Of a stretch of DNA of 64,000 nt, positions 8,471-64,000 are shown one piece after another. The notes below the pieces were generated by a model. It made no database searches, was not told where the DNA came from, and saw only the letters and a program-made list of their open reading frames with translations. The stretch lies in IMG/VR virus record IMGVR_UViG_3300035034_001213, positions 1-64,000 of that record; one strand, given 5' to 3'. A program made the translations under genes and the position numbers. Source of the DNA: a virus. Positions within the stretch are counted from its first letter, which is position 1. Each line of letters begins with the position of its first letter.

Positions 8471-8771
8471 TTTCAGTAAATTGATCTGTGAGTGTCTGAA
8501 ACTTGGCTGGGAGTATTCCCGAGGACAACCCAATGAACAGCAGCTGCAACATTGGGCGACGCTTGGGCGAGCGACCAGCGCGTTTAAGAAAAGTCACAAC
8601 GATTCAATCTGCACCAAACATCAAGTCATTCATTTGATCCGATGTAAAGAAGAAGCGTCTGTCCTAAAGGGCTATCGGCGACTGTGCTCTATTGGTTTGT
8701 GGACCGCGTGGATAGAAGACTATCCGGTGATTCGACCCGTGGAGCGAACGATCTTCAGTATTCAACCGTAG
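8445..8771 (+). CDS. Hypothetical protein
   Basis: 108-aa ORF with GAGGA RBS, overlapping the previous gene. Confidence 0.5.
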   Translation: MSVSRNIHDFSKLICECLKLGWEYSRGQPNEQQLQHWATLGRATSAFKKSHNDSICTKHQVIHLIRCKEEASVLKGYRRLCSIGLWTAWIEDYPVIRPVERTIFSIQP

Positions 8772-41089: not shown

Positions 41090-41854
41090 TTATTTCGTTG
41101 ATTTAAAGAACGTCTCACCCATCCAACCGATAGGATCGTACTTGTGAAAACGCACGGCCCCAGGTTTCTCATGATGATTGGCGTGCCAACAGTCTCCTAG
41201 AACAAAAGGAAACATCAACACGCTGTTGTGCGGTTCGTCGATGTGGTCTCTACCCCAATTGTGACCCCAAGTATTGGCGAGTGATTGGAGCTGCCAAGTT
41301 AAGGCCACGGGCGCCCAAACTAATGCAAGGGCCCAGACCGGCGGCAATAGAAACAACGCCCCAAAGAAGATAGGGCCGTAGATGTGCCAGTAGTGATTGT
41401 GGAACCACACGTGCCACTTCGATCGAAGAAGTCGTCCTGCGTGTCGGCCGCTGACCTTACGAAACGTGTACCCCAACAACTGAACCGACAACCAATGACT
41501 CCTCGCTGGGCTGTGAGGGTCACCAGAGAGCCCCTGATGCTTGTGGTGAGCATTATGAGTCGCTACCCATCCGAGTGTACTCCCCTGAAGAGACAGGCCG
41601 CCTATGAAGGTCAAGAGCGCTTCTATTGGCCATGGGACGTTGACTGCGTTGTGAGTCAACACCCGATGGTACATGAAACTGATGCCCAACTGACTGATCA
41701 CGTACCCCAACAACAACGACACACCCAACGGGCCCCAGGCACCTTGGATCATCAGTGCCAGAATCGATAGGTGACACAGAACGATCATAGCGTAGTGCAT
41801 CACTCGGTTCATTGGCAGCGTTTCAATGTTCAGCGTTTGTAATAAGGTACTCAT
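41090..41854 (-). CDS. Membrane fatty-acid desaturase (delta-9/DesC-like), copy 6
   Basis: His boxes HRVLTH, HNAHH and GDCWHANHH; DPHSP; TM helices. Confidence 0.9.
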   Translation of the reverse strand: MSTLLQTLNIETLPMNRVMHYAMIVLCHLSILALMIQGAWGPLGVSLLLGYVISQLGISFMYHRVLTHNAVNVPWPIEALLTFIGGLSLQGSTLGWVATHNAHHKHQGLSGDPHSPARSHWLSVQLLGYTFRKVSGRHAGRLLRSKWHVWFHNHYWHIYGPIFFGALFLLPPVWALALVWAPVALTWQLQSLANTWGHNWGRDHIDEPHNSVLMFPFVLGDCWHANHHEKPGAVRFHKYDPIGWMGETFFKSTK

Positions 41855-49095: not shown

Positions 49096-49130
49096 AATAA
49101 GAGGAGGCCCGAAGGCCTCCTCTATTTTTT
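49096..49130. terminator. Terminator after the desaturase array
   Basis: AGAGGAGGCC-CGAA-GGCCTCCTCT. Confidence 0.8.
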
Positions 49131-49934
49131 CGTCGCGGCTTTCAAAACATCGCTCAAATCGCAGGCGTCGTGGCCACGTCTAGGTTTCTTTATCAACCAA
49201 ATTACCCAAGCGGCTGGATCGATCTCCCACCATTTTATTTGCGTGTTCCAACGAGTTGGATACATGTGATGGTTGTTGTGCAGTCCATCGCCTAAAGTCA
49301 TTACGTGCATAAACCAACTGTTTCTACTTTCATCGGTTGTGTCGTAGTTACGGTACCCCCACTGATGTCCAGCAACATTGAACAGTCCTTTCAGATGAAA
49401 CATACACGCAGCCGGAATGCAGTATGCGTAAGCTGCGATCTTCCAATCAATCAAAGTCAGGACAAGGCTGAACATCAATAGAATAGGTACGTAGTATTTA
49501 TGCGTAAACTTGAAGAAGGGGTCTTTCAGTTCTTTCTTGATCAACCTGAGTTCAAGGTGCGGTACGTAATCGGTCCAGTCGCTGAACCACGACGTTAAAA
49601 CCCCTCGACCAACAGGACTGTGAGGGTCCTTCTCAGTGTCTGTGTGCTTATGATGCGATCGATGGACCAACGTGTTGGTCAACGGTGAGGCGATGGTGCA
49701 CAACATACCACAGAAGATTAGAAGATACCGAATAGGTGCGTAGGTCTCAAACGAGTTGTGGGCAAGCATGCGGTGGTAGCCTATCGTGACTCCTAAGAAT
49801 CCGTATGTTAAATAGGCGATCAACGAGACCTGAAGCCAAAACCACCAACCATTATACACTGCCGCAGAAATGAACGACAATGCTCCAATCTGCAACGCGA
49901 GCTGCAAGTACTTCAGTTGTCGAACTTCAGACAT
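49122..49934 (-). CDS. Membrane fatty-acid desaturase, copy 5
   Basis: HRMLAH, HRSHH, DPHSP, GDGLHNNHH, WWEIDP. Confidence 0.92.
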   Translation of the reverse strand: MSEVRQLKYLQLALQIGALSFISAAVYNGWWFWLQVSLIAYLTYGFLGVTIGYHRMLAHNSFETYAPIRYLLIFCGMLCTIASPLTNTLVHRSHHKHTDTEKDPHSPVGRGVLTSWFSDWTDYVPHLELRLIKKELKDPFFKFTHKYYVPILLMFSLVLTLIDWKIAAYAYCIPAACMFHLKGLFNVAGHQWGYRNYDTTDESRNSWFMHVMTLGDGLHNNHHMYPTRWNTQIKWWEIDPAAWVIWLIKKPRRGHDACDLSDVLKAATKK

Positions 49935-49946
49935 TAGTCTTCTCCA

Positions 49947-50705
49947 CTATGTCGGTTTTTTGATAAGCCAGATTATCCAAGCCGCTGGGTCTAGTTCCCA
50001 CCAGCGAATTTGAGTGTTCCAACGACCGGGGTATTTATGGTGGTTGTTGTGCCACCCGTCGCCGAACGACAATATGTGCATTGGCCAACAGTTGCGACTA
50101 TCCTCGTCAGTATCAAACGATCGATACCCCCAGGAGTGACCGAAGACGTTTGAAAACCCTTTGTAATGATAAAAGAACAAAGCCGGTACGCAGTACAAGT
50201 ACACAGCTACTTTCCAATCAACCAATGCCAGCATTACCACAAACAACAATAAGATTGTAGCGTAATGTTGATGCGTGAACTTAAAGAAGGGGTCTTTCAA
50301 CTCCTTTCTAGCGGTTCGAAGATCTAACTTCAAATCAATGCCCATCCAGTCTCCAAACCAAGTTCCTTTGTATCCCATTACGCTTGGACTGTGTGGGTCC
50401 CTAGCTCGGTCTGTGTGTTTGTGATGCGATCGGTGAACCAGTACGCCAGTCAACGGTGAGGATACCGAACACAGCATTCCACAGAAGATCAGCAGATACC
50501 GAATGGGAGCGTAGGTCTCAAACGAGTTGTGGGCAAGCATGCGGTGGTAGCCTATCGTCGTTCCAAGAACACCCACAACAAAATACACCAATAGTGCCCA
50601 ACCAAACCACGACCACATCTCTTGATAGATCCCATAAGGAATGGCCACAATCGCAATCGCGTGTGTGGCGATTTGAAAATATTTCAATTTGGTTGACGGT
50701 TGCAT
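49947..50705 (-). CDS. Membrane fatty-acid desaturase, copy 4
   Basis: HRMLAH, HRSHH, DPHSP, GDGWHNNHH; TAATG-coupled start. Confidence 0.92.
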   Translation of the reverse strand: MQPSTKLKYFQIATHAIAIVAIPYGIYQEMWSWFGWALLVYFVVGVLGTTIGYHRMLAHNSFETYAPIRYLLIFCGMLCSVSSPLTGVLVHRSHHKHTDRARDPHSPSVMGYKGTWFGDWMGIDLKLDLRTARKELKDPFFKFTHQHYATILLLFVVMLALVDWKVAVYLYCVPALFFYHYKGFSNVFGHSWGYRSFDTDEDSRNCWPMHILSFGDGWHNNHHKYPGRWNTQIRWWELDPAAWIIWLIKKPT

Positions 50706-51463
50706 TAGTACCTCGGTTTCTTTATCAAACGGATAACGACGGTTGGAATATCGACTTCCCACCAACGATCCCAGTTGTTCCAGTCGTTAGGGCGTGCATG
50801 ATGATTGTTGTGAAATCCTTCACCGCCTAATAACCAAGACACTAGCAACGAGTTGACTGACGCATCGTCCGTATCGTAGTTTCGATAGCCCGACGTATGG
50901 ATCCACGCGTTTGCAAAACCAAAGAGGATTCTTAGTAATGCAATCGGTAGTGCATACGCAAACAAAAACAAACGCCAATCGATGACTAACAGCAACGCTA
51001 CCCAACTGTAGATGATCTTAAAGTACTGGCGGTGAAAGAACAACATGTCTGGATCTCGAGTCAGATCCCGTATCGAACGAGGCGAACACTTCGACGTATC
51101 CATACCGATCGAGAACCAGGCTCTGAAGAACCCCATTGTCTTAGGACTGTGTGGATCTCCAGGTTTATCTGGGTACATGTGATGGGTTCTGTGTACCATG
51201 GCCCAAGTGACTGGTGAACCAAGACACATCAATGTACCACAGAACAGTAGAAACCACCGAACCGGAGTGTACGTAACAAAGCTGCGGTGCGATACGTATC
51301 GATGAAAGCCAACCGCGTTACCAAAGACGCTGAGAGTCAAGTAAACTCCCAACGTCCACCACAGCCAATGCCATTGCTGACTGTGGATTAGGTAAGTAAC
51401 CGCGACTATTCCAAAGACCGCATTGAACATCGTCAGTATGTTCGACTTGCGAGCTTCAGTCAT
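50705..51463 (-). CDS. Membrane fatty-acid desaturase, copy 3
   Basis: HRYVSH, HRTHH, DPHSP, GEGFHNNHH; AGGAG RBS. Confidence 0.92.
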   Translation of the reverse strand: MTEARKSNILTMFNAVFGIVAVTYLIHSQQWHWLWWTLGVYLTLSVFGNAVGFHRYVSHRSFVTYTPVRWFLLFCGTLMCLGSPVTWAMVHRTHHMYPDKPGDPHSPKTMGFFRAWFSIGMDTSKCSPRSIRDLTRDPDMLFFHRQYFKIIYSWVALLLVIDWRLFLFAYALPIALLRILFGFANAWIHTSGYRNYDTDDASVNSLLVSWLLGGEGFHNNHHARPNDWNNWDRWWEVDIPTVVIRLIKKPRY

Positions 51464-51473
51464 AGAGGTTCTC

Positions 51474-52271
51474 CTAGGCGGTTCTGTGTTTGGGCAAAGG
51501 ATGACCACGATGATGAATCAACTTAATGACCTGAGCCGGAATGTCCCATTCCCACCAACGTTCACGTGTATTCCACCGCGACGGATGCGCGTGATGATTG
51601 TTATGCCAACCTTCACCCATGGTCATGACGTTAGCGATCCAACTGTTCAAGCTGGTGTCGCCTTCCAACTGATGGTTACGATACCCATGAAGATGTGGGA
51701 TGACCACGATACCGCTGGCGCTGTGTAATGACAACACGGCCGGTAAAGCGTAGACGAAAGCTACCCCTTGCCAACCCAAGGTCAGGAACAGCAAGAGCGT
51801 CCAACCTGCCAACACATGGAAGTAGTAGTTATGCGTCCAGATGTATAAGGGATCCCGTCTCATCGTCTTCGAGACTCGACCAGCTTGTCGAAATCCTGAA
51901 GTATTCCAAGCACCGAACCATGCTTTCAATGGTCCTATGGCGTGTGGACTGTGCGGGTCGTGTTCACCATCCGTGTGAATGTGGTGGATGCGATGCACAA
52001 TGGACCAGGCCATCGGAGAACCCACGGTAGTGATGATGCCACAGAACATCAAAACGTATTCAACCGGTCGGTATGTCTTAAACGCCCCGTGCGCTAAGAA
52101 ACGATGAAACCCAACATTGATTCCTAGGATACCGATTACCCAATAGGTCAACCATGCGGTCAACAACCACATCCATTCACCCATGTAGATCGCCCAGCCC
52201 ACTGCAGGAATGGCAATTAGATGCGTGACTACTTGGAGCAGTCGTACACCGTTGTTGTGTGTCAATTTCAT
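51474..52271 (-). CDS. Membrane fatty-acid desaturase, copy 2
   Basis: HRFLAH, HRIHH, DPHSP, GEGWHNNHH. Confidence 0.92.
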   Translation of the reverse strand: MKLTHNNGVRLLQVVTHLIAIPAVGWAIYMGEWMWLLTAWLTYWVIGILGINVGFHRFLAHGAFKTYRPVEYVLMFCGIITTVGSPMAWSIVHRIHHIHTDGEHDPHSPHAIGPLKAWFGAWNTSGFRQAGRVSKTMRRDPLYIWTHNYYFHVLAGWTLLLFLTLGWQGVAFVYALPAVLSLHSASGIVVIPHLHGYRNHQLEGDTSLNSWIANVMTMGEGWHNNHHAHPSRWNTRERWWEWDIPAQVIKLIHHRGHPLPKHRTA

Positions 52272-52273
52272 TA

Positions 52274-53035
52274 CTACCCTCTCTTCTTGATAAGTCGAAT
52301 AAACATTGCGGTAGGATCAAGTTCCCACCATCTATGTTGAAGATTCCATTGACTGGGAAACGTGTGATGGTTGTTGTGCCACCCTTCGCCAACCGATAAG
52401 ATGTTGCAAAGCCAGCTGTTCTTTGAATGATCGTTATCTGGGTAGTTTTGATACCCCCAAGAATGACTCATAATCGATAGACAGAAGCCTACTACGAACG
52501 AATGCAGCGCCGCTGGAACGATGTACACGGCCAGAAGCCACTCAGGCCCTCCGAACAATAACAGTCCAAGACCATAAAGCGCATTCAATAAAAAATAATG
52601 CGTGTGAACCCAAAACATGATCGGATCACGAACCACGTCTCTGACGGAAACCCGCCGGTCTTGCATGTCGACGTATTTCAAACACAGAAGCGCTTTCCAG
52701 AAACCCATGTGACGATGACAATGTGGGTCCTTAGGCGTCTCGGTATAACGATGATGAACTCGATGCATCCAGGCCCAACTGATGGGAGTTCCCATCGCCA
52801 AAGGCACACTCATCAACGCCATGATCAATTCAATGGGTCGGTACGTCTTGTAGCTTCGATGCGAAACGTATCGATGCATGTACGCGTTGAACCCAATGCA
52901 TTGTTGAACACAATAGACACCGAGGGTTACCCAGAGCAACTCAGGGAAGGCCACCGCCAAGTAGATAACACTTGGAATAAACGCTAACCATAACCCGTTT
53001 CTAAAGACGTTCAATCGTTGTACGCTATACTCCAT
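52274..53035 (-). CDS. Membrane fatty-acid desaturase, copy 1
   Basis: HRYVSH, HRVHH, DPHC, GEGWHNNHH, WWELDP. Confidence 0.92.
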   Translation of the reverse strand: MEYSVQRLNVFRNGLWLAFIPSVIYLAVAFPELLWVTLGVYCVQQCIGFNAYMHRYVSHRSYKTYRPIELIMALMSVPLAMGTPISWAWMHRVHHRYTETPKDPHCHRHMGFWKALLCLKYVDMQDRRVSVRDVVRDPIMFWVHTHYFLLNALYGLGLLLFGGPEWLLAVYIVPAALHSFVVGFCLSIMSHSWGYQNYPDNDHSKNSWLCNILSVGEGWHNNHHTFPSQWNLQHRWWELDPTAMFIRLIKKRG

Positions 53036-54221
53036 ATCTGGTGACTCCTAAAACACTGTTCAATCCACCAAAGCCAAATGCGTTCTTGATAAACGAATTG
53101 ACTGGACCAGTAACTTGGTGTTTGGGAAGGTTAATCGGTTTTATGTCGGGGTCAGCTTCGAATTTACCGTTTGAGATGATAAACTCATACTTCATTTGAT
53201 ACAAGCTGTAGATCAACTCAATAATGCCAGACGCCGTGAGGGTGTGACCAATCAAACGTTTAAACGCAACGACTGGAATCTCATTGCCAATCACGTTTGA
53301 GATTGCTTCTGCTTCAACGACATCGCCATTAGGGGTTGAGGTCGCGTGTGCTGAGATGAAATCCGGACGGTGTCCCAACATAGCCATCTTACCTAAAACC
53401 TCAGACATGGACGCTGAGGCCCCCTCACCGGAAGGGTTCGTCATGTCTTCGCCGTCTGAATAATCAGCGTAGGCTATAGGCTGACCATACGCTTTAGTAC
53501 CACCACGTTGACGGAAGTATTCTTCCGATTCGAGAATAACACACCCGCCACCTTCACCATGTGTAAACCCACCACGATGTTTGACAAACGGCACACTGGC
53601 GTACGCTAGGTCGTCGCCTCGATAGAGTGCTCTCATGGCATCAAAGCCACGCATACCCTCATCGATGTATTTTTCAGTACTTACACAAATAACCACATCT
53701 GCACGACCAAGTTCGATCAGATCCATACCTTGGGTCACCGCGCGTAGTCCTGTAGCACACGCGTGTTGCACTGTGTGCGTTGGGCCTTTCAACTTAAGAA
53801 CGGTAGAGAGAGGTCCAGTTACAACCGTCGGAAGAGTCTTCATGAGATCAAACGGTTTGACCCGTGGGAAGTCCTTCTGAACAATACTACGCATGGAAGG
53901 CATGTCGCCAGCACCGCTGCCTGAGCACAAGGCTACTCGTCGAGTATTTATGTCGTCTAAACACAACCCCGCGTCCGCTAATGCGTCTAGTACTACTGCG
54001 TAGGAGATGTTTAAATGATCCATTTGATAACTACGAGGAATCCCGGGCGCCAGTAACCGTGAGTCGTCAATGCATTTGGAAACACTGCTCGCCTTGTTCC
54101 TGGGATCGTTACTTTCGTACCGTTGGATCGAAACTGTCTCTTGTTTCAGATTGCCAACAATTTCTCCCTCCCAACGTCCAATTGAGGTAATACACCCCAC
54201 ACCCGTTATTACACAACTCAT
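53025..54221 (-). CDS. Beta-ketoacyl-ACP synthase (FabF/FabB type)
   Basis: VITGVG, catalytic HACATG, GEGGG, HATST, KRLIGHT and NAFGFGG; Cys-His-His triad intact. Confidence 0.92.
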   Translation of the reverse strand: MSCVITGVGCITSIGRWEGEIVGNLKQETVSIQRYESNDPRNKASSVSKCIDDSRLLAPGIPRSYQMDHLNISYAVVLDALADAGLCLDDINTRRVALCSGSGAGDMPSMRSIVQKDFPRVKPFDLMKTLPTVVTGPLSTVLKLKGPTHTVQHACATGLRAVTQGMDLIELGRADVVICVSTEKYIDEGMRGFDAMRALYRGDDLAYASVPFVKHRGGFTHGEGGGCVILESEEYFRQRGGTKAYGQPIAYADYSDGEDMTNPSGEGASASMSEVLGKMAMLGHRPDFISAHATSTPNGDVVEAEAISNVIGNEIPVVAFKRLIGHTLTASGIIELIYSLYQMKYEFIISNGKFEADPDIKPINLPKHQVTGPVNSFIKNAFGFGGLNSVLGVTRYGV

Positions 54222-54816: not shown

Positions 54817-55371
54817 TCATTCTTTTAAATAAACATCAATAGGTATCGCAAGTCTAAGTCCAGGCTCGTGATTCTCAACGCTGTGCTGTAAGTACGATGG
54901 AAAGATAACCAGACCGCCGTGTTCGGTTTTGTATTTGTACGGCTGAAAGTGATTGTTGATCACATCCGTTGGGTATCCTCGAGACGCCAGTCCTCTTGGG
55001 TCAAACAAAGTTAAATACCCTTCCCTTGCCTCCAAGTAATAAATTGCAGAAACGTGGGCACCGCTGTGGTGGTGGATTGGTGTCCCGCACCCGTCGCTGC
55101 TGTTTCTTACCCAGCCAGTCCAGCTGTCTAGTAAAGGTTCGTAATTAAACTGATCCCAGGCGTACTGCATGATCTTGGGGATCAAGGTCTCCTCTACAAA
55201 CTCTTTCAGGTTCGGGTACTGTCTTAGATGCAAACTTCTGGTGTCGTCGATTGGAAGTCCGTCGGTACTCCTCGGTTGCATCATCGCTTCGTAAATCAAC
55301 GTTTCGTGCTGTTTAGAGACGACCGAATCTTCACGTATCGCGACAGTCCATGGATGAACGTCAATTGTCAT
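54817..55371 (-). CDS. Putative 2OG-Fe(II) oxygenase (TIGR02466-like)
   Basis: HHHSGAHVSAIYY, LFDPRG, FPSYLQHSV, RLAI. Confidence 0.82.
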   Translation of the reverse strand: MTIDVHPWTVAIREDSVVSKQHETLIYEAMMQPRSTDGLPIDDTRSLHLRQYPNLKEFVEETLIPKIMQYAWDQFNYEPLLDSWTGWVRNSSDGCGTPIHHHSGAHVSAIYYLEAREGYLTLFDPRGLASRGYPTDVINNHFQPYKYKTEHGGLVIFPSYLQHSVENHEPGLRLAIPIDVYLKE

Positions 55372-55380
55372 GGAATATCC

Positions 55381-55947
55381 TTACTTAGGTTTACTCAAGT
55401 ACAAATCGACTGGAATAGAAATTCTCATCTTTTTATCATGTCCGTCAACGTAGTGTTGAAGATACGACGGGAATACAAGAAGCAATCCTTCTTTTGGATC
55501 TTCGCTGAACAAATTAAAAAATTCATTCCGAACCACCGTCGGGTATCCTCGGCACGCAGACCCTCGGGGGTCGACCAGATTGAGTGCGCCGCCATTGGTA
55601 GTTAATGGATAGTAGATCGCTGACAGAACGGCCCCACTGTGTTCGTGAAGTTTCATACCTTCGCCACCGGTCGTTACTCGGACCCAAGCGTTGTATGTGT
55701 ACTCCACGGCTTCTAATTCCCAGTGCTCGTAAAGATACGACAGCAGCGCTGGGAGAACTCGATCTTCAAGCATCCGATGGATCTGTGGAAACGTCTTTAA
55801 TGAAACGGTGTTGTCATCCAGATCCAGATCGTCGAAGTTTCGGTTTGTAGACCGTATCAGCGCTTCGGTTATCAATTCGTCGTTGTCTACGTTTTCGAGT
55901 ATCTCCCGACGGACCACTGTCCGCCATGGTTCTATATCTTGAAACAT
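55381..55947 (-). CDS. Putative 2OG-Fe(II) oxygenase (TIGR02466-like)
   Basis: HEHSGAVLSAIYY, LVDPRG, FPSYLQHYV, RISI; GGAGG RBS. Confidence 0.82.
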   Translation of the reverse strand: MFQDIEPWRTVVRREILENVDNDELITEALIRSTNRNFDDLDLDDNTVSLKTFPQIHRMLEDRVLPALLSYLYEHWELEAVEYTYNAWVRVTTGGEGMKLHEHSGAVLSAIYYPLTTNGGALNLVDPRGSACRGYPTVVRNEFFNLFSEDPKEGLLLVFPSYLQHYVDGHDKKMRISIPVDLYLSKPK

Positions 55948-56357
55948 GCGGCCTCCGCCATACACTCGTCTTTGAAATATTGGACCGTGAAATCCACCCA
56001 CCGACCTTTTAGGGGAATGTTCTCAATGCCCCCTAAGGCCTCCAATATGATGTCGTACGATTCCTTGTCTTGGGTGTAGGGTACAAAGTATTCATCAGTT
56101 CCGTATAAAAGCATGGGGTCGTTTAAGACCTCATAGAACGGTTCGTTGAAGTGTTCCCAAAGTAACCGAGAATAAATCAAAGCAACCGCGTATGACTTTC
56201 CTGGATAAACCGATTCTTCCCGAGGGTCTAACAAATACTCCAAAGCCGGACCTACGACGTCTTCTCGATCAATGATCGTCTCAAAGTTTTCGACAGCGTC
56301 GGTGTGGACTTGGGTCATAAGGTGATATAGCTTCTGATTGGCTTTCCATTCTTTCAT
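55932..56357 (-). CDS. Hypothetical protein of the radical SAM cluster
   Basis: ATGA-coupled to the upstream radical SAM gene. Confidence 0.6.
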   Translation of the reverse strand: MKEWKANQKLYHLMTQVHTDAVENFETIIDREDVVGPALEYLLDPREESVYPGKSYAVALIYSRLLWEHFNEPFYEVLNDPMLLYGTDEYFVPYTQDKESYDIILEALGGIENIPLKGRWVDFTVQYFKDECMAEAACFKI

Positions 56358-57442
56358 GAAGCACGCCGCTCCCAGTTAAACTCTTCACGCATCTCCCTTG
56401 CGGTTGAAATACAGTGTTCGGAGTCGGTAATGGTCATCACTTTCTGGACTCCCCGCTCAGCGCACTTGGCAATGAACTCACACCCGTCACAGATGCCGTT
56501 GGTTTGCGCCAACGACAGACACTCGATCATACCGTCCTCTTCTTGACGAAAGATGTTCTCGAAGGTCCAGGGACCGTCCACTCGATGCTCCGGTTCAAAG
56601 GAGGAGAAGGCTTCCACAATGAACGGAGGCACAAACATCTCACCGTTGCGGTACACCACGTCCCAGTCTTCCCCTTCGTTCATCTGCAACTCAACGATTT
56701 CGAAATGTTCCTGACGCTCGTTCGCAGCCATCCGTGACTGGATAAGCAACCGGTTTAGGTGTTCAAGACTGGACAGGAAATTTTCTTGATTGACGGGATC
56801 TCTGAGGCTCTCTCGACCGTGAGGAAGAATGAAATCGCTGTGCGACGTCGGATGGAGATTGACGTGGTACGCTCGAGTAAGGATGTCCTTAGTCAGAGTG
56901 AAGCCGCGTTTATGATCGTTGGCGATCGACTCCTCAAAGTTAACGACGCTGTAGACTCGAGTGATCTTAACGGTACTTAAGCAGCTTTCGAAATACGCCA
57001 CCCTGTTACGAATGCCTTCGATGTACGCTGGGTTGTCAATGTGACGCACCTCAAACGGCACCGTAAACTTCAGAAGACCGTTAGGAATCAACGCTTCGAC
57101 TTGTTCCGCCAACTTTTCATAGACCTCAGGTTTCGGATCTAGGAACGCACAGTTCAAGGTGGTCTTGAGAAACCGCTGAGCAATCTGCTTGATCCTCGGG
57201 TGTTCCAAGATCAAGTTTTTGTTCTCGGAGCTGAGGATGTCTGTGGGACCCAAGATAAAGTTGAGGACCTCCAACTCAGCGGTTTCAAAGGTATCGATCA
57301 TTCGATCAATGCGATCAAACTCTTCAAGGGTTGGGAATCGATTGTCTTCTTTCTCAACCATACATCCCGAACAATTGTGTCGACAGCCACTTGCGATTTC
57401 CATAGTGAAGTCGATTAACTTATTAACTTGTGACTTGTGCAT
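56354..57442 (-). CDS. Atypical radical SAM-like protein with C-terminal Cys cluster
   Basis: CRHNCSGC (CxxxCxxC); C-terminal CDGCEFIAKC...HC; no GGE motif. Confidence 0.68.
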   Translation of the reverse strand: MHKSQVNKLIDFTMEIASGCRHNCSGCMVEKEDNRFPTLEEFDRIDRMIDTFETAELEVLNFILGPTDILSSENKNLILEHPRIKQIAQRFLKTTLNCAFLDPKPEVYEKLAEQVEALIPNGLLKFTVPFEVRHIDNPAYIEGIRNRVAYFESCLSTVKITRVYSVVNFEESIANDHKRGFTLTKDILTRAYHVNLHPTSHSDFILPHGRESLRDPVNQENFLSSLEHLNRLLIQSRMAANERQEHFEIVELQMNEGEDWDVVYRNGEMFVPPFIVEAFSSFEPEHRVDGPWTFENIFRQEEDGMIECLSLAQTNGICDGCEFIAKCAERGVQKVMTITDSEHCISTAREMREEFNWERRAS

Positions 57443-57446
57443 AATT

Positions 57447-58502
57447 TCACCAACTGCATTTATAGCTGAGTTTACCGAGCACCGACAAACACTCATGCGT
57501 TCCTAATAACCTCTGTACTCGATGTACCCCTCGAGTTGCGCACTTGCTGACAAACCGACACCGAGAACATTCGTTAGATTCACCAGCACGGGTGATGGAT
57601 TCGAAAAAGGTCTCTTGATCGGCCTGTTGGATCTTGTCAAGTGTCCAGGGTTTCTTGAATTTGAAGTCGTCGTGAAAAATGGTGATCGGACTGTTAATAA
57701 GGGGGGCTATATACAGGTCGCCATTGCGATACGCCAGATGATAATCGCACCCAACGTGCTCACCCAGATCGTCGATCTTAAACTCGTACCCTTTGTCCAC
57801 CTGATTGGCAAACATTTCGTTTTGCTTCAAGATGGTTCTTAAGAACTCTTCTCGGTCTTCGTTAACCGACAGGTCACGGCGGCCGTAATGAAACACAAAC
57901 GTGGTGGTGTCTGACTTTTCAAACAACTCGATGTGTCGGGTCTTATGGAGCGTCTCTTCACTGACAACGCCTTTGTCCATCAGCGACTCGGTCATATTCA
58001 CGATCGCGGTAACACTCCCGATCCCCACCGACTTCAGATTTTCATTCAACCAGTTGATGCGACCCCGGAGCTTTTCAACGTACCCCAAGTTGTCGTGATG
58101 CTTTAATTCGAAGGGTACCAGAAACTCCGCGTTCAACCCTGGCATAAACGCCTCGAGCTCTTCAGCAAACTGAACGTACGCGTCCGGATCGGGGTTCAAG
58201 AAGGAGCAGTTGAACACCACCGACTTAAACCCTTTTAACATCTTTCGAACCGCAGGGTGAGTTAATACGTCTTGTCGATTGCTGGCGGACATGATGTCTA
58301 CCGGTGCAAACTCCATCCAAGACATCTCCCATCCACGACTGCGTACGTCGTCAATAATCTCACTGAGCGCTGCGAGATCGGCTTCTGTGTATGGGGTAAT
58401 GTCTTTGGTGTTAACGCTGCACCCAGAACACCCGTAGTCACAGTCTTTTAACAACTCCAGCGCTAGATTGCCGATGTTGTCCCCTCGAACCATGGTTGTC
58501 AT
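57447..58502 (-). CDS. Atypical radical SAM-like protein with C-terminal Cys cluster
   Basis: CDYGCSGC; C-terminal CSRCRFVSKC...EC; apparent paralog of its neighbour. Confidence 0.68.
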   Translation of the reverse strand: MTTMVRGDNIGNLALELLKDCDYGCSGCSVNTKDITPYTEADLAALSEIIDDVRSRGWEMSWMEFAPVDIMSASNRQDVLTHPAVRKMLKGFKSVVFNCSFLNPDPDAYVQFAEELEAFMPGLNAEFLVPFELKHHDNLGYVEKLRGRINWLNENLKSVGIGSVTAIVNMTESLMDKGVVSEETLHKTRHIELFEKSDTTTFVFHYGRRDLSVNEDREEFLRTILKQNEMFANQVDKGYEFKIDDLGEHVGCDYHLAYRNGDLYIAPLINSPITIFHDDFKFKKPWTLDKIQQADQETFFESITRAGESNECSRCRFVSKCATRGVHRVQRLLGTHECLSVLGKLSYKCSW

Positions 58503-59443
58503 TGCGATTCAGCCCATTTTAACAAATGTAGAAACCCGTTGCACGAGTGCGTCGTATCGGTGACTTTACGAAGATGTTCAGACAAACACTTACCGGCGTA
58601 GTCACATTCCGAACACTTGGAATCAAGTACCTTGAGCTTCTCTCCTGCACACCAACCAAAGTATTCCTCGATACTGTCCAACTCCAAAAAGTATTCGTTG
58701 TCTTGTTCATCAAAGTCCAAGACGCCGAACTTCCCAGTTGGGGTGATGTAGACGTGGTCGTCGGAGAACGAATGTCCCCGACCTTCCAAACAATCTTGTA
58801 TGTTCAACGCGTTCACAAAATCAAACTTCATCTTATCTTGGCGCTTGTACAACACCTTGATAAACGCCTCGTAGTCGTGATAACTCACCGGCAGTTGATT
58901 GGCTTGATTAGGACTGTACGGCTTGATCTCTACCGACGTGAGATTTGACAACAGGTTTAACGTGTTGATGATCTCATCTGGGTCTTTCGCCATTACTTCG
59001 GGAGTAGCCAACATCAAAATCGAAAAGTCGCGTTCCATTTTTAACATCTGCTGAAAGACGTGGTCGTGCTTTTCTCGAGCCTCAAAGTCGTAGCTCACTG
59101 AGATGCCCCAGCTCACGTCGTGGACCGCAGGATTGTTCATGGATAGATTGGTGATGATGTTAAGATCGTCAATCCCACGATCGTGTAACCCGTCCTTCAG
59201 TGCGCCGATGTATTCCGGTGGCAACAACAAAGGTTCGCCACCGTACAGATCCACCATCTCTACCTTCCGGTGAATCATTACCTCATCGATCCGATCAAAC
59301 AACCGATGCAACGTCAAGCGCTTCTTGTCGCCGAGTTGTTCTGACGTGAGATAACAAAACCCACATCGGAAATTACAGAAGTACGAAGGATTAATGCTAA
59401 GATTAATCGGAATCTCAGGTAACGTCAAAGAGTTTGAGTTCAT
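58499..59443 (-). CDS. Radical SAM/SPASM-type protein
   Basis: CNFRCGFC, LYGGEP, ITNL, C-terminal CSECDYAGKC...SC. Confidence 0.88.
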   Translation of the reverse strand: MNSNSLTLPEIPINLSINPSYFCNFRCGFCYLTSEQLGDKKRLTLHRLFDRIDEVMIHRKVEMVDLYGGEPLLLPPEYIGALKDGLHDRGIDDLNIITNLSMNNPAVHDVSWGISVSYDFEAREKHDHVFQQMLKMERDFSILMLATPEVMAKDPDEIINTLNLLSNLTSVEIKPYSPNQANQLPVSYHDYEAFIKVLYKRQDKMKFDFVNALNIQDCLEGRGHSFSDDHVYITPTGKFGVLDFDEQDNEYFLELDSIEEYFGWCAGEKLKVLDSKCSECDYAGKCLSEHLRKVTDTTHSCNGFLHLLKWAESQ

Positions 59444-60512
59444 CGTTACTCTCATCTACGTAGGGGGTGGGAATCAATTGCCCAGTCAATCCATTGGCCT
59501 CGATGATCTCTGGGGCAAGAGCTTTCATCTTACGACAGTGCTCTTCAACACGACCTGTCTTTTTAGCGTCGCGTATGCTCTTCTTACACCCATTGCATAT
59601 AGAGAACATTGGACAGAAGAAACAGTCTTTCTTCAGACTTTGCAGTTCATAGACTTGAAGCGGCAGTTTCATCTCCCCTTCCATCTCCTCGTTAAAGTCG
59701 ATGGGGTATTCTCGATCGTCCCCAAACGACCCACAAGAATAATAGCCACCATTGGGTTGCATGGTGCGAATACCAGAGTCGCAGTTACGAGACAAAGGAC
59801 AAGCGTCAGAACCTTTGGCTAAAACTTGAAGCATCTGCTTAGTGCTGTACTCCCAGGGTGCCAGACCTTCCCGCCACACCGCCAAATACGCTTTGTACAT
59901 ATCGGCGACTAAGAAATGTTGATCTTCACTGCCCATGGTGCCTTTACGGGTTTGTATTACCGGACCCGAAGCGTTGGTGTAGTTGATCTTACATTCCACA
60001 TCCATCGCTTTGGCTAAACGTACTGTCTTCACCACATCGTCGACGTTCGTTTCATCGATTACTGAGATGAACGATGGGCGATACCCCACCAGCTCCAACA
60101 TGAGGTCTGAGACGGCCCAGAACTCCTCTTCGGTGAAAGGGGTATAATCACCCTTCAAACGCTTGTTACCGTACTGGAAGCTCGTAGCAACGCCCACACG
60201 AGGGTGTTTGAACAACTCCAGCCACATCTGAGGTTTCTTGTAGAACGGCCAGAGGTTGGTCGTCAGTGAAATGGACGTGTGGGGCATATCCAACTCATCC
60301 AGAATCTCAATCATTTCCCAGTAGTACGACACGGGCATCATAAGGGGATCGCCGCCGTTGATGATGATCGTATCGGTTTGTGGGAATCGTTGAAGAAACC
60401 GTTTGATGTCCGGAAGCTCAACGATGTCGTTGCTGTCCTCAGCGATGTCGGTGCTTGAGCAGAAGGTGCACTTAAAGTTACACTTCTCAGTTGGCTTAAT
60501 TATCAAATCGAT
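59415..60512 (-). CDS. Radical SAM/SPASM-type protein
   Basis: IIKPTEKCNFKCTFC, NGGDP, TTNL, CPLSRNC, YSCG, CFFC..FSICNGC; start probably ATC at 60512. Confidence 0.9.
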   Translation of the reverse strand: MDLIIKPTEKCNFKCTFCSSTDIAEDSNDIVELPDIKRFLQRFPQTDTIIINGGDPLMMPVSYYWEMIEILDELDMPHTSISLTTNLWPFYKKPQMWLELFKHPRVGVATSFQYGNKRLKGDYTPFTEEEFWAVSDLMLELVGYRPSFISVIDETNVDDVVKTVRLAKAMDVECKINYTNASGPVIQTRKGTMGSEDQHFLVADMYKAYLAVWREGLAPWEYSTKQMLQVLAKGSDACPLSRNCDSGIRTMQPNGGYYSCGSFGDDREYPIDFNEEMEGEMKLPLQVYELQSLKKDCFFCPMFSICNGCKKSIRDAKKTGRVEEHCRKMKALAPEIIEANGLTGQLIPTPYVDESNDELKLFDVT

Positions 60513-60543
60513 TTTACTACCCTCCTAGCCGTTAAGGGCTCGT

Positions 60544-61602
60544 TTAAACATTCATGGCAGGAATGCGTTTATCCGGTCCTTCGACGACCGAGTCAATGTA
60601 CCGATGCGTGACTTTGTAGACACACTCATCCATCTCTTCCCGGAACCGGTAATTGTGTTGCATGAAACAACCCAACTCACAACGCTGGAAATACTCACAG
60701 GTCAAGCACCCATATTTCTCCATGAAGTGCTCTTCAATCGCCGAGTTGTCGGTTTTGTCCAACGGCACCTCGTAAATCTCTTCCGCCACCTTGGGATCGA
60801 TCAGATTACCGCAGCCGCACGTGGTCCCGTCTTCTAAGACCAGTTTACTCGACCGACACGACAGTGCCGAAGGCTGACGTCTTAACCACCCGGCGACCGG
60901 CTCACAGTTCGGGTAGTGGTCAATCAAAAACTTGAACATGCGTAACAAGTCATGATCGCTTGGGGCTGCGTTGGTTTTCTCATCCGGCATGAGGTAATCG
61001 AAGTACAACTTAAACCCTTGATCGTACGCCCAACTAAAGAACTCGTCTTGGTCTTTGACGAAGTGTTCGATGTTTTGCTTGGTCATCAAAAGACTGACGC
61101 TTCGAACCACGCGCGGTCCATAGTAAGCCAGGTTCTTCTTGAAGATCTCTAACTGCGCTCGATTGAATCTTCCTTTTGGATCGTAGGACACCGTCACTGT
61201 GGTGCTTCCGCCCAAGGTTCTTGCTCTTTCTAAGAAGTCGTCCAGTAGCGGGCGGTCCTCCGTGACCAGATTTGTCACCCAGTTCAACGTCACCGCTATG
61301 TTCTTCGCCCGACATTGATCGATAATCGCTTCACTGAACCGAACGTAGGTGTCGGCCAATTCGGGGGTAAAGACCTCTGGTGCAAAGACCTCACCCCCCA
61401 TAATGTTAAACACCACTTTGCGTTTGGTTTCTTTTTGCAGAAGCGCTTCAACAGAAGAGAGCTTGCCCATGACATCATCGACCCCCACTAAGGAGTCGTG
61501 ATCCTGCCAACAGAAACTGCATGACAGGTTACAGTAGGTGAACAGATGTAACGTGTACTCCTGCTCTTCATCGCGCTTGTTCTGTAAAAAGACGTCCATC
61601 AT
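60544..61602 (-). CDS. Radical SAM/SPASM-type protein
   Basis: CNLSCSFC, MGGEV, VTNL, C-terminal CLTCEYFQRCELGC...EC. Confidence 0.9.
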   Translation of the reverse strand: MMDVFLQNKRDEEQEYTLHLFTYCNLSCSFCWQDHDSLVGVDDVMGKLSSVEALLQKETKRKVVFNIMGGEVFAPEVFTPELADTYVRFSEAIIDQCRAKNIAVTLNWVTNLVTEDRPLLDDFLERARTLGGSTTVTVSYDPKGRFNRAQLEIFKKNLAYYGPRVVRSVSLLMTKQNIEHFVKDQDEFFSWAYDQGFKLYFDYLMPDEKTNAAPSDHDLLRMFKFLIDHYPNCEPVAGWLRRQPSALSCRSSKLVLEDGTTCGCGNLIDPKVAEEIYEVPLDKTDNSAIEEHFMEKYGCLTCEYFQRCELGCFMQHNYRFREEMDECVYKVTHRYIDSVVEGPDKRIPAMNV

Positions 61603-62615
61603 AATTCAAAGCCTTTACAGTCCTCCGCTGTCAACGTCACGGCCCAATGGATCACGTGGACTTTGAGTTTGTCCATGTCGGCCCAGTCGAGGTAGTCCGT
61701 GTGTTCGGTGCTTGTGCGGAGCATGGAAATGAATTGAGTCACCACTTCGTCATCGCTCAAAGGCGCTAACGTGTCGATGATCTTCAACTTGGCGCGTTCG
61801 CCTGCGATTTGCGTTTTCTCGATCTGAACTTCCTGATCCAGATACACCGCCATGTCTCGCAGCACCGCCTCTTGAGCCGGTTCTTTTAAACGAGTGATGC
61901 GAAGACTCAGGTTCGGGTCGTTCAAAAAATTGAGTCTGGGTATCTTACGCAGTATGTCGAAATCACCCAGGTACTTAGCAGCGGTGTATCCGTACTTCTT
62001 CTGCATGTTCTCAGAAAAGAACAGAGACACCAGGTTCCGCTGTATCTCATCGATGTGATTGTGCATCGATCGTAACGCAAATACTCGAATCGGATCGGCT
62101 AAGTTCGCACGTTTGTTCCCAGACAAATGGTCCAAGAGTTTGTATTCCAACGACACTCGTTCTGGCATGTCTCGAACCAAAGCCCTCAGTTCTGGATCTT
62201 GCTCCACGATTGAGAGACCAACCAACGTTTCTTTCAGCACGTCGGTCTTTGGCAGCGGTACGCCTTGAGTGCTGAGTGACAGAAACTCCAGATTCAGTAG
62301 CTGAAGCAATTGTTCTGAACTGGCGTTTGGAAACAACGCTTTGAGCCACTTAGCCACTAATTGCCCGTAGGACTCGACACTGGTGTAGATAACTACCTTC
62401 TTGTCACCCAGTCCTTTGTACTTAGCAATCAGATCGGAGAAACCGCTTTTAACGAATTTCTCTTCGTCAGGCTCCACCCCCATGACAAAGGGACCAGAGA
62501 TTAAAGTTTCATCAAAATTCTCACCTAAGGCCTTTGAAGCCAGGAAGAACGTGTTCTGCTCGTCTTTGAGTACGTCCACACCTAGGTAGATGCGATTAAA
62601 CAAATGATACATCAC
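61599..62615 (-). CDS. Hypothetical protein of the radical SAM cluster
   Basis: 338 aa, 4-nt overlaps with both neighbours. Confidence 0.65.
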   Translation of the reverse strand: MMYHLFNRIYLGVDVLKDEQNTFFLASKALGENFDETLISGPFVMGVEPDEEKFVKSGFSDLIAKYKGLGDKKVVIYTSVESYGQLVAKWLKALFPNASSEQLLQLLNLEFLSLSTQGVPLPKTDVLKETLVGLSIVEQDPELRALVRDMPERVSLEYKLLDHLSGNKRANLADPIRVFALRSMHNHIDEIQRNLVSLFFSENMQKKYGYTAAKYLGDFDILRKIPRLNFLNDPNLSLRITRLKEPAQEAVLRDMAVYLDQEVQIEKTQIAGERAKLKIIDTLAPLSDDEVVTQFISMLRTSTEHTDYLDWADMDKLKVHVIHWAVTLTAEDCKGFEL

Positions 62616-63337
62616 GTTTCCTTAAGCGACTCTTGCTGTTTTTGTAAGACTGCAACCGCCGACTGAAATTCATCGTCGGATATCATGTGGCCGTCGGCCA
62701 GTGCCGTCGTTAACACGTGCACGTCGTTCTCAGGAATTGACCAGTATGCGAACAGGTTCTTACCTTTGAACATGTAGTCGTTGAAGTACTTGGTGTAGTT
62801 CTTGACCAAGTTCTCACTGATTACGTTCATTGTCAATGGAAACAATGGGTTGTCGAACAAATGTACGAAGTTGATGCCTTTTGTATCAGCGGTTTCATCT
62901 AGGGGGAAGTGCTCCACCACCGATGAGATTGTTTCATCGTTGATCGTGGTCATCATGTACAGACTCATGGAGTCGATCAACGACAACCATTTACCAAGGA
63001 TCTCGGTGTGGTCTTTGATCCACTTATCCGTAATCCAATTGCATTCAGCAATGCCTTTGATGTGCAAGATGACCTCAAGCACCATGGTCTCAAGGGTTGG
63101 GCATTTCAGCAACGTTGGTAGTGTGAGGTAGGCTTCAAGTACGTCCCACGCTTCGTCGCCATTGAACGTGACGTCCACTGGGAGTTCCAAGTTACTTAGA
63201 TACACCAACGCTTGATACGGACTGACCCTTTCTCGGGAAGCGCTAAGATCAACCAAAAGCGAGACTTCTTTATCGCCAATGATTTCTCTGAGAGTTTCAA
63301 CCGGAATAGGCACGGTGGTTTCTATTACTCTACTCAT
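62612..63337 (-). CDS. Hypothetical protein of the radical SAM cluster
   Basis: TAATG-coupled to the Cys/His-motif gene; YLSNL motif. Confidence 0.65.
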   Translation of the reverse strand: MSRVIETTVPIPVETLREIIGDKEVSLLVDLSASRERVSPYQALVYLSNLELPVDVTFNGDEAWDVLEAYLTLPTLLKCPTLETMVLEVILHIKGIAECNWITDKWIKDHTEILGKWLSLIDSMSLYMMTTINDETISSVVEHFPLDETADTKGINFVHLFDNPLFPLTMNVISENLVKNYTKYFNDYMFKGKNLFAYWSIPENDVHVLTTALADGHMISDDEFQSAVAVLQKQQESLKET

Positions 63338-63888
63338 TATCGCCGACCTCTTGAGTTATGGCACCGAGAGTGACATCGAGTGTGACAGACATCTCGAGTT
63401 AATAACGTAGCCCCTCCCCGAGCGAATGCTAAATAGTTGTTTCTTAGAGACTCGATGAAGTCATACGTATCCGATTGATCAACGTCGTTTCCGGCGATAA
63501 CGGTGGTTATATCCGGAAATCCAGTGTCGGCAGCGTATTGAGGGGCCAAATGAGCCACCGCTGTGACGTTGTAAATCAATCTTTTGCTGTTGTTGTAATA
63601 CCCAGATCGGGTTCGATAAATAGTGATCTGCGTGTTACGAACATTGAAATACCCTTGTGCAACCCCGATCAAACTGCTCCTACATCTCAATGCGTCCAAT
63701 TCCCCATCGGTGCCTCGTATTGAAGCATATGAAGGCATCGTGTAATCGCCACCAGTGCTTCCACCAAACCATCCCAGAAGGGAACCGGAAGGGTAATTGT
63801 TGGTGCCCCACGAAATACCACTTCTTTGCAGCTCTCTTACCCGGGTTAGAAACCGGTTGTAGACGTCGTATACCCTAATGTCAGCCAT
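63337..63888 (-). CDS. Putative radical SAM substrate protein with C-terminal CHxx repeat
   Basis: Ends VCHTRCHSRCHNSRGRR; first gene of the radical SAM run; AGGA RBS. Confidence 0.65.
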   Translation of the reverse strand: MADIRVYDVYNRFLTRVRELQRSGISWGTNNYPSGSLLGWFGGSTGGDYTMPSYASIRGTDGELDALRCRSSLIGVAQGYFNVRNTQITIYRTRSGYYNNSKRLIYNVTAVAHLAPQYAADTGFPDITTVIAGNDVDQSDTYDFIESLRNNYLAFARGGATLLTRDVCHTRCHSRCHNSRGRR

Positions 63889-64000
63889 GTCAAGCTTCCT
63901 ATATATTTAAATGTCCATACGATCTAACGTTCCTCTATCCCACGTTCAAAGCAGGGATGATCTCTGTCTCTCCGTACTTAAAATGAGAGAGTAACATTCT

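Follow-up and report, generated by a model that had tools for sequence, protein, structure and literature searches.

What is a short, repeated cysteine-histidine tail doing at the end of a phage protein whose gene stands among a whole string of genes for radical S-adenosylmethionine (SAM) enzymes? The question is raised by a 73,033-base viral contig (IMG/VR record IMGVR_UViG_3300035034_001213; class linear in IMG/VR, CheckV completeness 27%), of which positions 1-64,000 are the stretch analysed here and referred to as the window; G000 denotes the whole contig, in the same numbering. Its closest cultured relatives are jumbo phages, namely Pseudomonas phage pPa_SNUABM_DT01 and the Ralstonia/Burkholderia Chiangmaivirus group (RSL2, RSF1, FLC6, FLC8, S13). 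A search for sequencing runs listed six of DNA, from lake-water metagenomes, and none of RNA. An earlier note on the window proposed that the chemistry of RiPPs (peptides made by the ribosome and then modified post-translationally) is here applied to a 183-amino-acid (aa) protein, the CH-tail protein. We regard this as the best reading, because the tail is a conserved core, is linked to radical SAM genes, and is carried by a folded body. These are grounds of comparison rather than chemistry, and the searches made found no RiPP recognition element (RRE). On comparative and structural grounds, we consider it reasonably probable that the radical SAM enzymes modify the tail while it is part of the protein, to which it then stays attached.

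The C-terminal end of the protein encoded at 63888-63337 on the minus strand is ...VCHTRCHSRCHNSRGRR, and the translation of the open reading frame (ORF) at 63337..63888 (minus strand) closes with ...TRDVCHTRCHSRCHNSRGRR before the stop codon. The tail comprises residues 168-183, CHTR-CHSR-CHNS-RGRR, and occupies positions 63337-63387 of the DNA including the stop. When the pattern CH..CH..CH..R.RR with its stop codon was back-translated and searched for in the 64-kb window, this minus-strand site was the only match, and none arose in 100 shuffled sequences; no other CH-repeat is present in the whole 73,033-base contig. The TAA stop codon of the tail gene shares bases with the ATG of the following gene (TAATG), and because of this overlap the two look translationally coupled.

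Relatives of the protein are numerous and highly divergent everywhere except at this end. A word-based homology search gave only 3 proteins, and an exhaustive profile search was needed; covering 1.84 billion representatives, it recovered 399 at E<=1e-3 and 182 at E<=1e-10. Counts of tails rest on the best 150 of these 399 representatives, which are clusters at 50% identity. The exact C-terminal CH..CH..CH..R.RR is found in 131 of the 150, a further 11 have three CH.. units in a row but differ in the ending or the position, and in 8 the units are fewer. As a consensus, the tail reads V-C-H-[S/A]-S-C-H-S-[S/N]-C-H-[G/S]-S-R-G-R-R, with Ser at the fourth place of units 1, 2, and 3 in 121, 96, and 112 of the 131 exact tails, respectively. 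The window's copy is atypical in that repeats 1 and 2 have Arg as their fourth residue, where 121 and 96 of these relatives have Ser and where Arg is not among the commonest residues listed. Across a 105-sequence alignment, the mean column identity of the whole protein is 22%, and the invariant columns are one Cys and three Arg, all within the tail, with the other tail Cys and His conserved at 90% or more. Likewise, the ending [IV]CHxxCHxxCHxxR[GS]RR, followed by the stop, closes 21 of 21 tail proteins from the window, 18 IMG/VR loci, and 2 isolates, the bodies of which are merely 30-46% identical. In these alignments, selection is concentrated on the tail. Relatives range in size from 124 to 364 aa, the number of repeats ranges from 2 to 4, and the genes also occur as tandem pairs; variable repeat number and tandem genes are typical of modular substrate cores.

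Several variants of the tail were encountered in the course of this comparison. A one-to-one pairing of the three repeats with the three terminal Arg was considered and rejected, as two-repeat tails keep R.RR and four-repeat tails may be without Arg. Degenerate tails are found in otherwise complete clusters, reading CHYS-CFTS-SCHFS-RGRR and CHSS-CHSN-VTCYNS-RGRR (loci L272, 4739-5428, and L282), the second of these loci having two tandem genes with ends near 8548 and 9170 on the minus strand; as natural mutants, they could reveal which positions matter. There is also a short form of the system, in which two tandem genes for proteins of ~127 aa, each with the same tail, lie near several enzymes resembling rS_D and rS_E (listed below). 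It was seen in L023, L047, L056, L060, L065, L075, L080, L084, L087, L089, L094, L096, L098, and L099, for the most part on viral contigs between 5 and 66 kb in length, with one of 151 kb. Longer tandem pairs, of ~250 aa, were seen in L072, L091, and L095.

The genes around the tail gene form a single minus-strand string which, read 5' to 3', runs from tail-fibre-repeat proteins (outside the window) through a cupin, rS_U, the 183-aa tail protein, acc241, acc338, rS_A to rS_E, and p141 to two 2-oxoglutarate (2OG)-Fe(II) oxygenases:

G000 64984-65466, minus strand: cupin, JmjC-like, 160 aa, wholly beyond the window (Pfam, and profile search against the PDB).
G000 63935-64996, minus strand: rS_U, radical SAM/SPASM enzyme, 353 aa, with only its 3' end, 63935..64000, inside the window.
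63337..63888, minus strand: CH-tail protein, 183 aa, ORF with the tail CHTR-CHSR-CHNS-RGRR.
62612..63337, minus strand: acc241, 241 aa, phrog_20767, without known family; ORF whose start overlaps the tail-gene stop codon.
61599..62615, minus strand: acc338, 338 aa, ORF without family and evolving fast.
60544..61602, minus strand: rS_A, radical SAM/SPASM-like, 352 aa, with CNLSCSFC at residue 24, a GGEV motif, and a C-terminal CX2CX5CX3C (phrog_1802, 2.7e-47).
59415..60506, minus strand: rS_B, radical SAM/SPASM-like, 363 aa (Pfam Radical_SAM, 41 bits).
58499..59455, minus strand: rS_C, radical SAM, 318 aa, with a partial SPASM/twitch-like Cys cluster (Pfam Radical_SAM, 39.4 bits).
57447..58502, minus strand: rS_D, divergent radical SAM-like protein, 351 aa, phrog_31457, with CX3CX2C and without a GGE motif.
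56354..57496, minus strand: rS_E, divergent radical SAM-like protein, 380 aa, a paralogue of rS_D (29% identity, E 1e-61).
55932..56357, minus strand: p141, conserved ORF of 141 aa, phrog_20737, function not assigned.
55381..56001, minus strand: 2OG-Fe(II) oxygenase (PF13759; TIGR02466 match below cut-off).
54817..55371, minus strand: second 2OG-Fe(II) oxygenase (family matches).

The tail gene, two accessory ORFs, and five Cys-cluster enzymes described in the earlier note are thus all present as ORFs with the corresponding motifs; five radical SAM enzymes do lie in the window, but the set was incomplete, as a sixth (rS_U) and the cupin stand directly upstream, mostly outside it.

This arrangement is conserved. 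In a set of 20 protein-based loci (18 from IMG/VR and two isolates), the order cupin, rS_U, tail, acc241, rS_A is found in 20 of 20, with the tail gene of RSL2 recognised by translation and not by BLAST; acc241 stands beside the tail gene in all 20, and rS_B is present in all 18 that extend far enough. By BLAST, acc338 was found in 8 of the 20 (23-62% identity), and rS_D is missing from L008, L009, and L022. A DNA-motif scan of viral contigs gave at least 119 stretches; of the 80 loci among the matches listed, 77 contain one or more radical SAM-like ORFs, and in the other 3 the locus is short or the motif falls at its edge. The converse also holds. Starting from rS_B, 36 loci were found, 29 with a strict tail ORF upstream, 1 with a variant pair, and 6 at first without; 4 of those six have less than 4 kb upstream, and a hidden Markov model identified a family member with a degenerate tail in the other 2, so that where at least 7.6 kb of upstream sequence is available, a tail-family gene is present in 32 of 32 (29 strict, 3 variant). 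The linkage between the tail gene and the radical SAM genes is therefore two-way, and with these counts the test that the earlier note had set, under which homologues mostly lacking radical SAM neighbours would speak against its proposal, did not refute it. The number of radical SAM genes per locus ranges from 2 to 7. At the lower end are the reduced loci L200 and L201, in which rS_U and rS_B are the only radical SAM genes; both keep acc338 and lie beside two fibre genes, and L201 additionally keeps acc241 and a 2OG oxygenase.

Downstream of the cluster, the window also encodes six paralogues of fatty acid desaturase (Pfam FA_desaturase, E 1e-11 to 4e-19) and a FabF-like beta-ketoacyl synthase (KAS), at 41090-41854 and 49122-54221 on the minus strand. 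The KAS gene is also found in the closest relative, L005, and not in DT01 or RSL2. These genes were considered as part of the core and rejected, as the KAS and desaturase genes are missing from DT01, RSL2, and most loci.

The tail protein was expected to be folded, and the model bears this out. An AlphaFold2 (AF2) model built on the 105-sequence alignment reaches a pLDDT of 90.7 and a pTM of 0.84, with a value of ~57 for the tail; three long helices are predicted to pack against a four-stranded sheet, and the tail begins where the last strand ends. Residues 1-168 are accordingly modelled as a compact folded alpha/beta domain and the tail as flexible. The fold could not be placed: a Foldseek search against the PDB gave 0 matches at E<=1e-3, the best exhaustive VIA match had a Z of 4.7, a family profile searched against the PDB gave nothing credible, and matches in BFVD are to uncharacterised phage proteins only. 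Co-folding of rS_U with three 4Fe-4S clusters, SAM, and the tail protein scored 0.02 against a mark of 0.32, in a run without controls that is evidence for neither side.

A folded body of this kind bears on whether the locus might encode a classical RiPP, in which the 165-aa body would be no more than a long leader and the modified tail would be cleaved from it to give a free, small bioactive peptide. The position of the core at the C-terminus, its variable repeats, the tandem precursor genes, and the resemblance of the enzymes to RiPP maturases would all suit such a product, and leaders that are both long and folded are found in other classes of RiPP (NHLP/Nif11). The body, however, is in the model a conserved, confidently folded domain that in some relatives is fused to fibre-type domains, and it has no Gly-Gly-type cleavage site before the core. 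Moreover, no peptidase or transporter family was found by Pfam among the cluster genes from 54279 to G000 65466. Measured against radical SAM/SPASM RiPP systems, the locus has the CX3CX2C maturases and the SPASM auxiliary domain (in rS_U), but a folded protein of 183 aa in place of a short leader-core precursor, and neither a leader peptidase nor an exporter. We therefore think release of a peptide distinctly unlikely. By its sequences, the gene set looks like machinery for the oxidative modification of a protein side chain, unlike one for making and exporting a small peptide.

All six enzymes have a CX3CX2C motif near the N-terminus, starting at residues 9-38 (within 9-45), and rS_A to rS_E each have a C-terminal CX2CX5C(X2-3C) cluster, as does rS_U. 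Pfam Radical_SAM matches lie above the cut-off for rS_U (35.5 bits), rS_B (41), and rS_C (39.4) and below it for two of the five enzymes in the window; rS_D (57447-58502) has no match. For SPASM (TIGR04085), rS_U exceeds the cut-off (30.8 bits against 27), and in the other five the evidence consists of the CX2CX5C(X2-3C) motif or sub-threshold matches only. The most divergent are the mutual paralogues rS_D and rS_E (29% identity), neither of which has the GGE motif. The most conserved is rS_B, at 58-62% identity to most relatives and up to 75%; being kept in L200 and L201, it belongs to the minimal set. rS_U aligns end to end with the anaerobic sulfatase-maturating enzyme (anSME; 47 bits), DynA, and PapB, with weaker alignments to HxsB and to cyclophane synthases, and its profile matches the PDB entries 8vpo (2.1e-9), anSME 4k37 (7.4e-8, full length), and CteB (1.6e-6). 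DynA and anSME align with rS_B at full length, below their cut-offs. Single-sequence searches of the PDB with rS_B and rS_U gave nothing useful, and PADLOC matched no system, finding just a generic likeness of the N-terminal radical SAM core to pVip.

The concentration of Fe-S enzymes in one operon, next to a tail rich in metal ligands, could also point to a scaffold or carrier, with the radical SAM enzymes building a metallocluster or cofactor on the tail Cys and His or the protein feeding clusters or electrons to the enzymes. Scaffold-based assembly involving radical SAM enzymes is known from NifB and HydE/G/F. Family, fold, and profile searches nevertheless showed no similarity to known scaffold or ferredoxin families, the closest relatives of the enzymes modify peptides and proteins, and such a role would leave both the conserved Ser and a histidyl-hydroxylase-like cupin without explanation; we consider it very improbable.

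The profile of the cupin finds the histidyl hydroxylase MINA53 as the best solved relative in the PDB (2.5e-7 over 114 profile positions), with NO66 and the arginine hydroxylase YcfD matching more weakly; the H-x-D...H residues are invariant, and the Pfam JmjC_2 match is below the cut-off (17.2 bits against 22). MINA53, NO66, and YcfD are JmjC ribosomal oxygenases that hydroxylate His or Arg in proteins, and the cupin of the cluster differs from them in being only ~160 aa, a bare barrel.

Taken with the enzyme affinities, these features allow a pathway to be proposed. The substrate would be the exposed last 16 residues, (C-H-x-S/R)x3-R-G-R-R, of a folded alpha/beta protein. The radical SAM/SPASM enzymes would abstract hydrogen atoms from this tail, leading to covalent changes that may be cross-links and/or oxidation at Cys, at His, or at the residue two after His. 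Of the enzymes, rS_U and rS_B may form the minimal pair, and rS_A, rS_C, rS_D, and rS_E would contribute further steps particular to certain lineages. Hydroxylation of tail residues would fall to the JmjC-like cupin and the 2OG oxygenases, with His the likeliest target of the cupin. We assume that acc241 and acc338 hold or present the folded body, and the product would remain part of the protein and not be set free as a peptide.

The accessory proteins gave few clues of their own. acc241 has 145 homologues and an AF2 model with a pLDDT of 90.4, for which Foldseek found nothing in the PDB at E<=1e-3 and VIA gave at best a Z of 5.0 over a 58-residue beta-alpha-beta unit. The profile of acc241 against the PDB gave nothing credible, and that of p141 gave spurious repeat matches only. 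No family emerged from the ESM Atlas for acc241 or acc338, whose Atlas models are poor (pLDDT 0.39 and 0.41). The suggestion in the earlier note that these proteins might have RRE-like folds found no support: the model of acc241 (the ORF at 62612) has no PqqD-like match, although absence of an RRE from its fold-search lists is not proof; neither Pfam nor NCBIfam places an RRE or HxsD family in any accessory protein; and none of the enzymes has an N-terminal extension able to hold an RRE. Because there is neither a PqqD-like match for acc241 nor such an extension, the idea is unsupported. The enzymes are in this respect similar to anSME, which likewise has no room for an RRE. It is known that anSME acts on whole proteins, at Cys or Ser.

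The genes beside the cluster raise the question of where the tail protein resides. Homologues of fibre proteins lie directly upstream in 16 of the 20 protein-based loci. Two of the best 150 relatives (P0069 and P0144) have (CHxS)4 followed by a Gly/Asp/Pro linker and then a Peptidase_S74 intramolecular chaperone, the contig of one of these fusions retains the same neighbour genes, and one further relative has an N-terminal glycine-rich domain. The window's own tail protein has no Pfam match and so no C-terminal Peptidase_S74. In tail fibres and spikes, Peptidase_S74 serves as the module for trimerisation and self-cleavage, and it is a hallmark of trimeric fibres. Fibre proteins with many NPH-x-VTKAQVGLG-x-V-x-N repeats, one with an S74 chaperone, are encoded on both sides of the cluster, at L004 2568-4211, 6087-7232, and 8109-9968 (G000 65567-72967) and at 44971-47328 of the window. 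In Agrobacterium phage Atu_ph07, the homologue is RefSeq gp170, flanked by radical SAM genes. According to the report on that phage, most of the 131 virion proteins detected by electrospray ionization tandem mass spectrometry are encoded in three clusters, one being 'CDS 170-215' (PMC6102473); its 'CDS' numbering may be off by one from RefSeq, so that this cluster would begin at about the gene for gp170. The virion-tip protein suggested in the earlier note, like any association of the tail protein with the virion or its fibres, is thus no more than a lead; as a guess at its final role, we favour an oligomeric component with such an association.

The same observations bring in the main rival to tail modification, namely that the tail is a structural metal site, in which a trimer would bind Fe, Zn, or Cu along its axis through stacked Cys3 and His3 layers, and the radical SAM enzymes would act elsewhere, on fibres or a small molecule. 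The earlier note had itself allowed for a metal site. Invariant Cys and His in the tail, Peptidase_S74 right after the repeats in 2 of the best 150 relatives, and the fibre genes directly upstream in 16 of 20 loci would all be in keeping with this, and metal-binding His layers are found in the fibre tip of T4 gp37, to which a likeness can be drawn. A metal site gives no reason for a nearly invariant Ser at the second position after each His (121, 96, and 112 of 131), for the terminal R.RR, or for the variation in repeat number from 2 to 4. It also leaves unexplained the two-way linkage to radical SAM genes, which persists even where no fibre gene is nearby, as in the loci from Bdellovibrionota described below. 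We consider it unlikely, though a serious competitor.

Several points weigh against modification of the tail and should be considered together. Cys and His at i, i+1, i+4 and so on are classic metal ligands, and the S74-fused relatives suggest a trimer whose Cys3/His3 layers could bind metal without covalent chemistry. An RRE-like recognition domain was not found in family searches of the accessory proteins or the fold search with acc241. Repeat number and the number of radical SAM genes (2-7) do not go together: L200 and L201 have 4 repeats and only rS_U and rS_B. Some of the enzymes may therefore act on another substrate, such as the neighbouring fibres. Their chemistry cannot be transferred from known families, because every match is far under the curated cut-offs. 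In the RSL2 record, the fibre homologue is called a 'virion structural protein' and the tail protein merely a 'hypothetical protein'. Finally, for every member of the family, the argument for modification is a comparative one.

How does the system relate to those already described? No paper on this tail family, and none assigning a function to a phage radical SAM cluster of this kind, was found in the literature; the available portions of the FLC6, RP12/RP31, and S13 papers give annotations only. The nearest analogue among known systems is HXS, an antiphage system, to which the present one does not belong. HxsA is described as a protein of 214 aa with five HxS repeats that is matured by the radical SAM enzymes HxsB and HxsC with HxsD, undergoes a +8 Da change on SHRSS, and blocks the entry of phage DNA (PMC13128918). 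The two are alike in outline, the likenesses being a protein of ~200 aa with His-x-Ser repeats rather than a short peptide, maturation by radical SAM enzymes that form a pair and are joined by a small accessory protein, a covalent change on the S-H-R-S-S repeat of HxsA, and repeats rich in basic residues (PMC13128918). Among the differences, Cys precedes each His here, where the family consensus is C-H-x-S three times and the window's copy instead has HTR, HSR, and HNS; there are four to seven enzymes together with oxygenases; the tail protein has no signal peptide and no peptidoglycan-binding domain; and the carriers are phages and predatory bacteria, whereas HXS is a defence island of enteric hosts. 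With the HxsA model, the tail protein gives no match; the one match on the contig is to the peptidoglycan-binding domain of an endolysin (22.8 bits against a cut-off of 121.65). For HxsB (TIGR03978), rS_U scores 38.3 bits against a cut-off of 370, for HxsC (TIGR03977), rS_B scores 31 bits against 267.9, and for HxsD (TIGR03976), there is no match at E<=0.1.

Other families fare no better as direct equivalents. The CXXX-repeat maturase model (TIGR04115, rSAM_Cxxx_rpt) reaches at best 13.6 bits on the contig, against a cut-off of 350. anSME (TIGR03942, PDB 4k37) is similar as a compact radical SAM + SPASM enzyme of ~350-370 aa without an RRE that aligns over its full length with rS_U and rS_B; in the equivalog model, these score 47.3 and 38.8 bits, respectively, against a cut-off of 349, and no sulfatase is present in the Pfam results for the contig. 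The target motif of anSME, C/S-x-P/A-x-R, is unlike C-H-x-S. The cyclophane and thioether maturases (XyeB, GrrM, YhhB, AmcB, FxsB, HtkB, PapB, CteB) are also radical SAM/SPASM enzymes and cross-link residues two or three apart in short repeated motifs, the HtkB cross-link joining His-C2 to Lys-C-beta. However, matches to them are far under the cut-offs and mostly confined to the N-terminal core, and their substrates are short leader-core peptides with RRE recognition. His-x-x cyclophanes have been described (PMC11499958). Overall, the system appears to belong to the radical SAM maturation of ribosomal products and, as far as its sequences tell, matches no described system that was tested.

Unexpectedly, the cluster is not confined to phages. 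A DNA-motif scan of one genome per prokaryotic species gave 47 stretches, of which 8 are chance matches (no ORF and no cluster genes) and 39 are real loci, 37 of these having cluster genes within an 8-kb locus. Most of the genomic records are metagenome-assembled genomes (MAGs). Twenty-seven of the 39 real loci (L142-L199) carry the label Bdellovibrionota, including contigs of 1.29, 2.45, and 2.84 Mb, and the remaining 12 look like phage contigs binned into MAGs. On one Halobacteriovoraceae contig (L196/L197 = G003:C1:290000-326000), the full kit of tail protein, acc241, acc338, rS_A, rS_B, rS_C, rS_U, p141, cupin, and 2OG oxygenase lies between housekeeping genes, its flanks in this one case being serine dehydratase, an Mrp-type ATPase, a class A penicillin-binding protein, and a lytic transglycosylase. 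No signal peptide was seen in the Bdellovibrionota tail proteins when judged by eye. In a quick tree of rS_B, nine Bdellovibrionota rows group together among phage rows, and 3 label changes are needed; a single origin is not excluded, and the root, set by very distant paralogues, is unreliable. The best explanation of these comparisons appears to be a conserved protein-maturation system of large phages that is also present in Bdellovibrionota.

Some neighbours of the bacterial clusters are also worth recording. Adjoining the Bdellovibrionota cluster in L196 (9765-11006, minus strand) is a protein of 413 aa whose N-terminus is hydrophobic and pilin-like and which ends in a Peptidase_S74 chaperone, with homologues in L146, L155, L168, L174, and L187, and its 512-aa neighbour (L196, 11370-12908) is also found in L172 and L180. 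In one Bacteriovoracaceae genome, an acc241-like gene and rS_U are separated by the gene for a protein of 2355 aa that has RCC1 repeats together with a Big_2 domain (L194, 9866-16933, minus strand).

Radical SAM maturation has been described mainly on short peptides, along with a few proteins of cells. Here its target appears to be a large, strictly conserved, uncharacterised phage protein family, with 399 clusters at 50% identity, and each locus spends two to seven radical SAM genes plus oxygenases on the tail protein. A modified tail would imply new cross-link or oxidation chemistry on the C-H-x-S motif and, after HxsA, a second radical SAM-matured protein in phage-bacterium conflict. A bolder conjecture, to which we attach only a small chance, is that jumbo phages and Bdellovibrionota share an apparatus in which radical SAM enzymes, along with a histidyl-hydroxylase-like cupin, act on the (Cys-His-x-Ser)n end of a trimeric protein associated with fibres and make it a 'staple' or reactive tip, covalently cross-linked and oxidised; this would amount to post-translational modification of a structural or adhesion protein by radical chemistry, for use in attack on Gram-negative envelopes. 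Both the chemistry and the phenotype are directly testable, because the system is carried by cultured phages (Pseudomonas DT01, Agrobacterium Atu_ph07, Sinorhizobium Phosso, and Burkholderia S13), and the presence of the same kit in Bdellovibrionota chromosomes ties together two kinds of bacterial predator.

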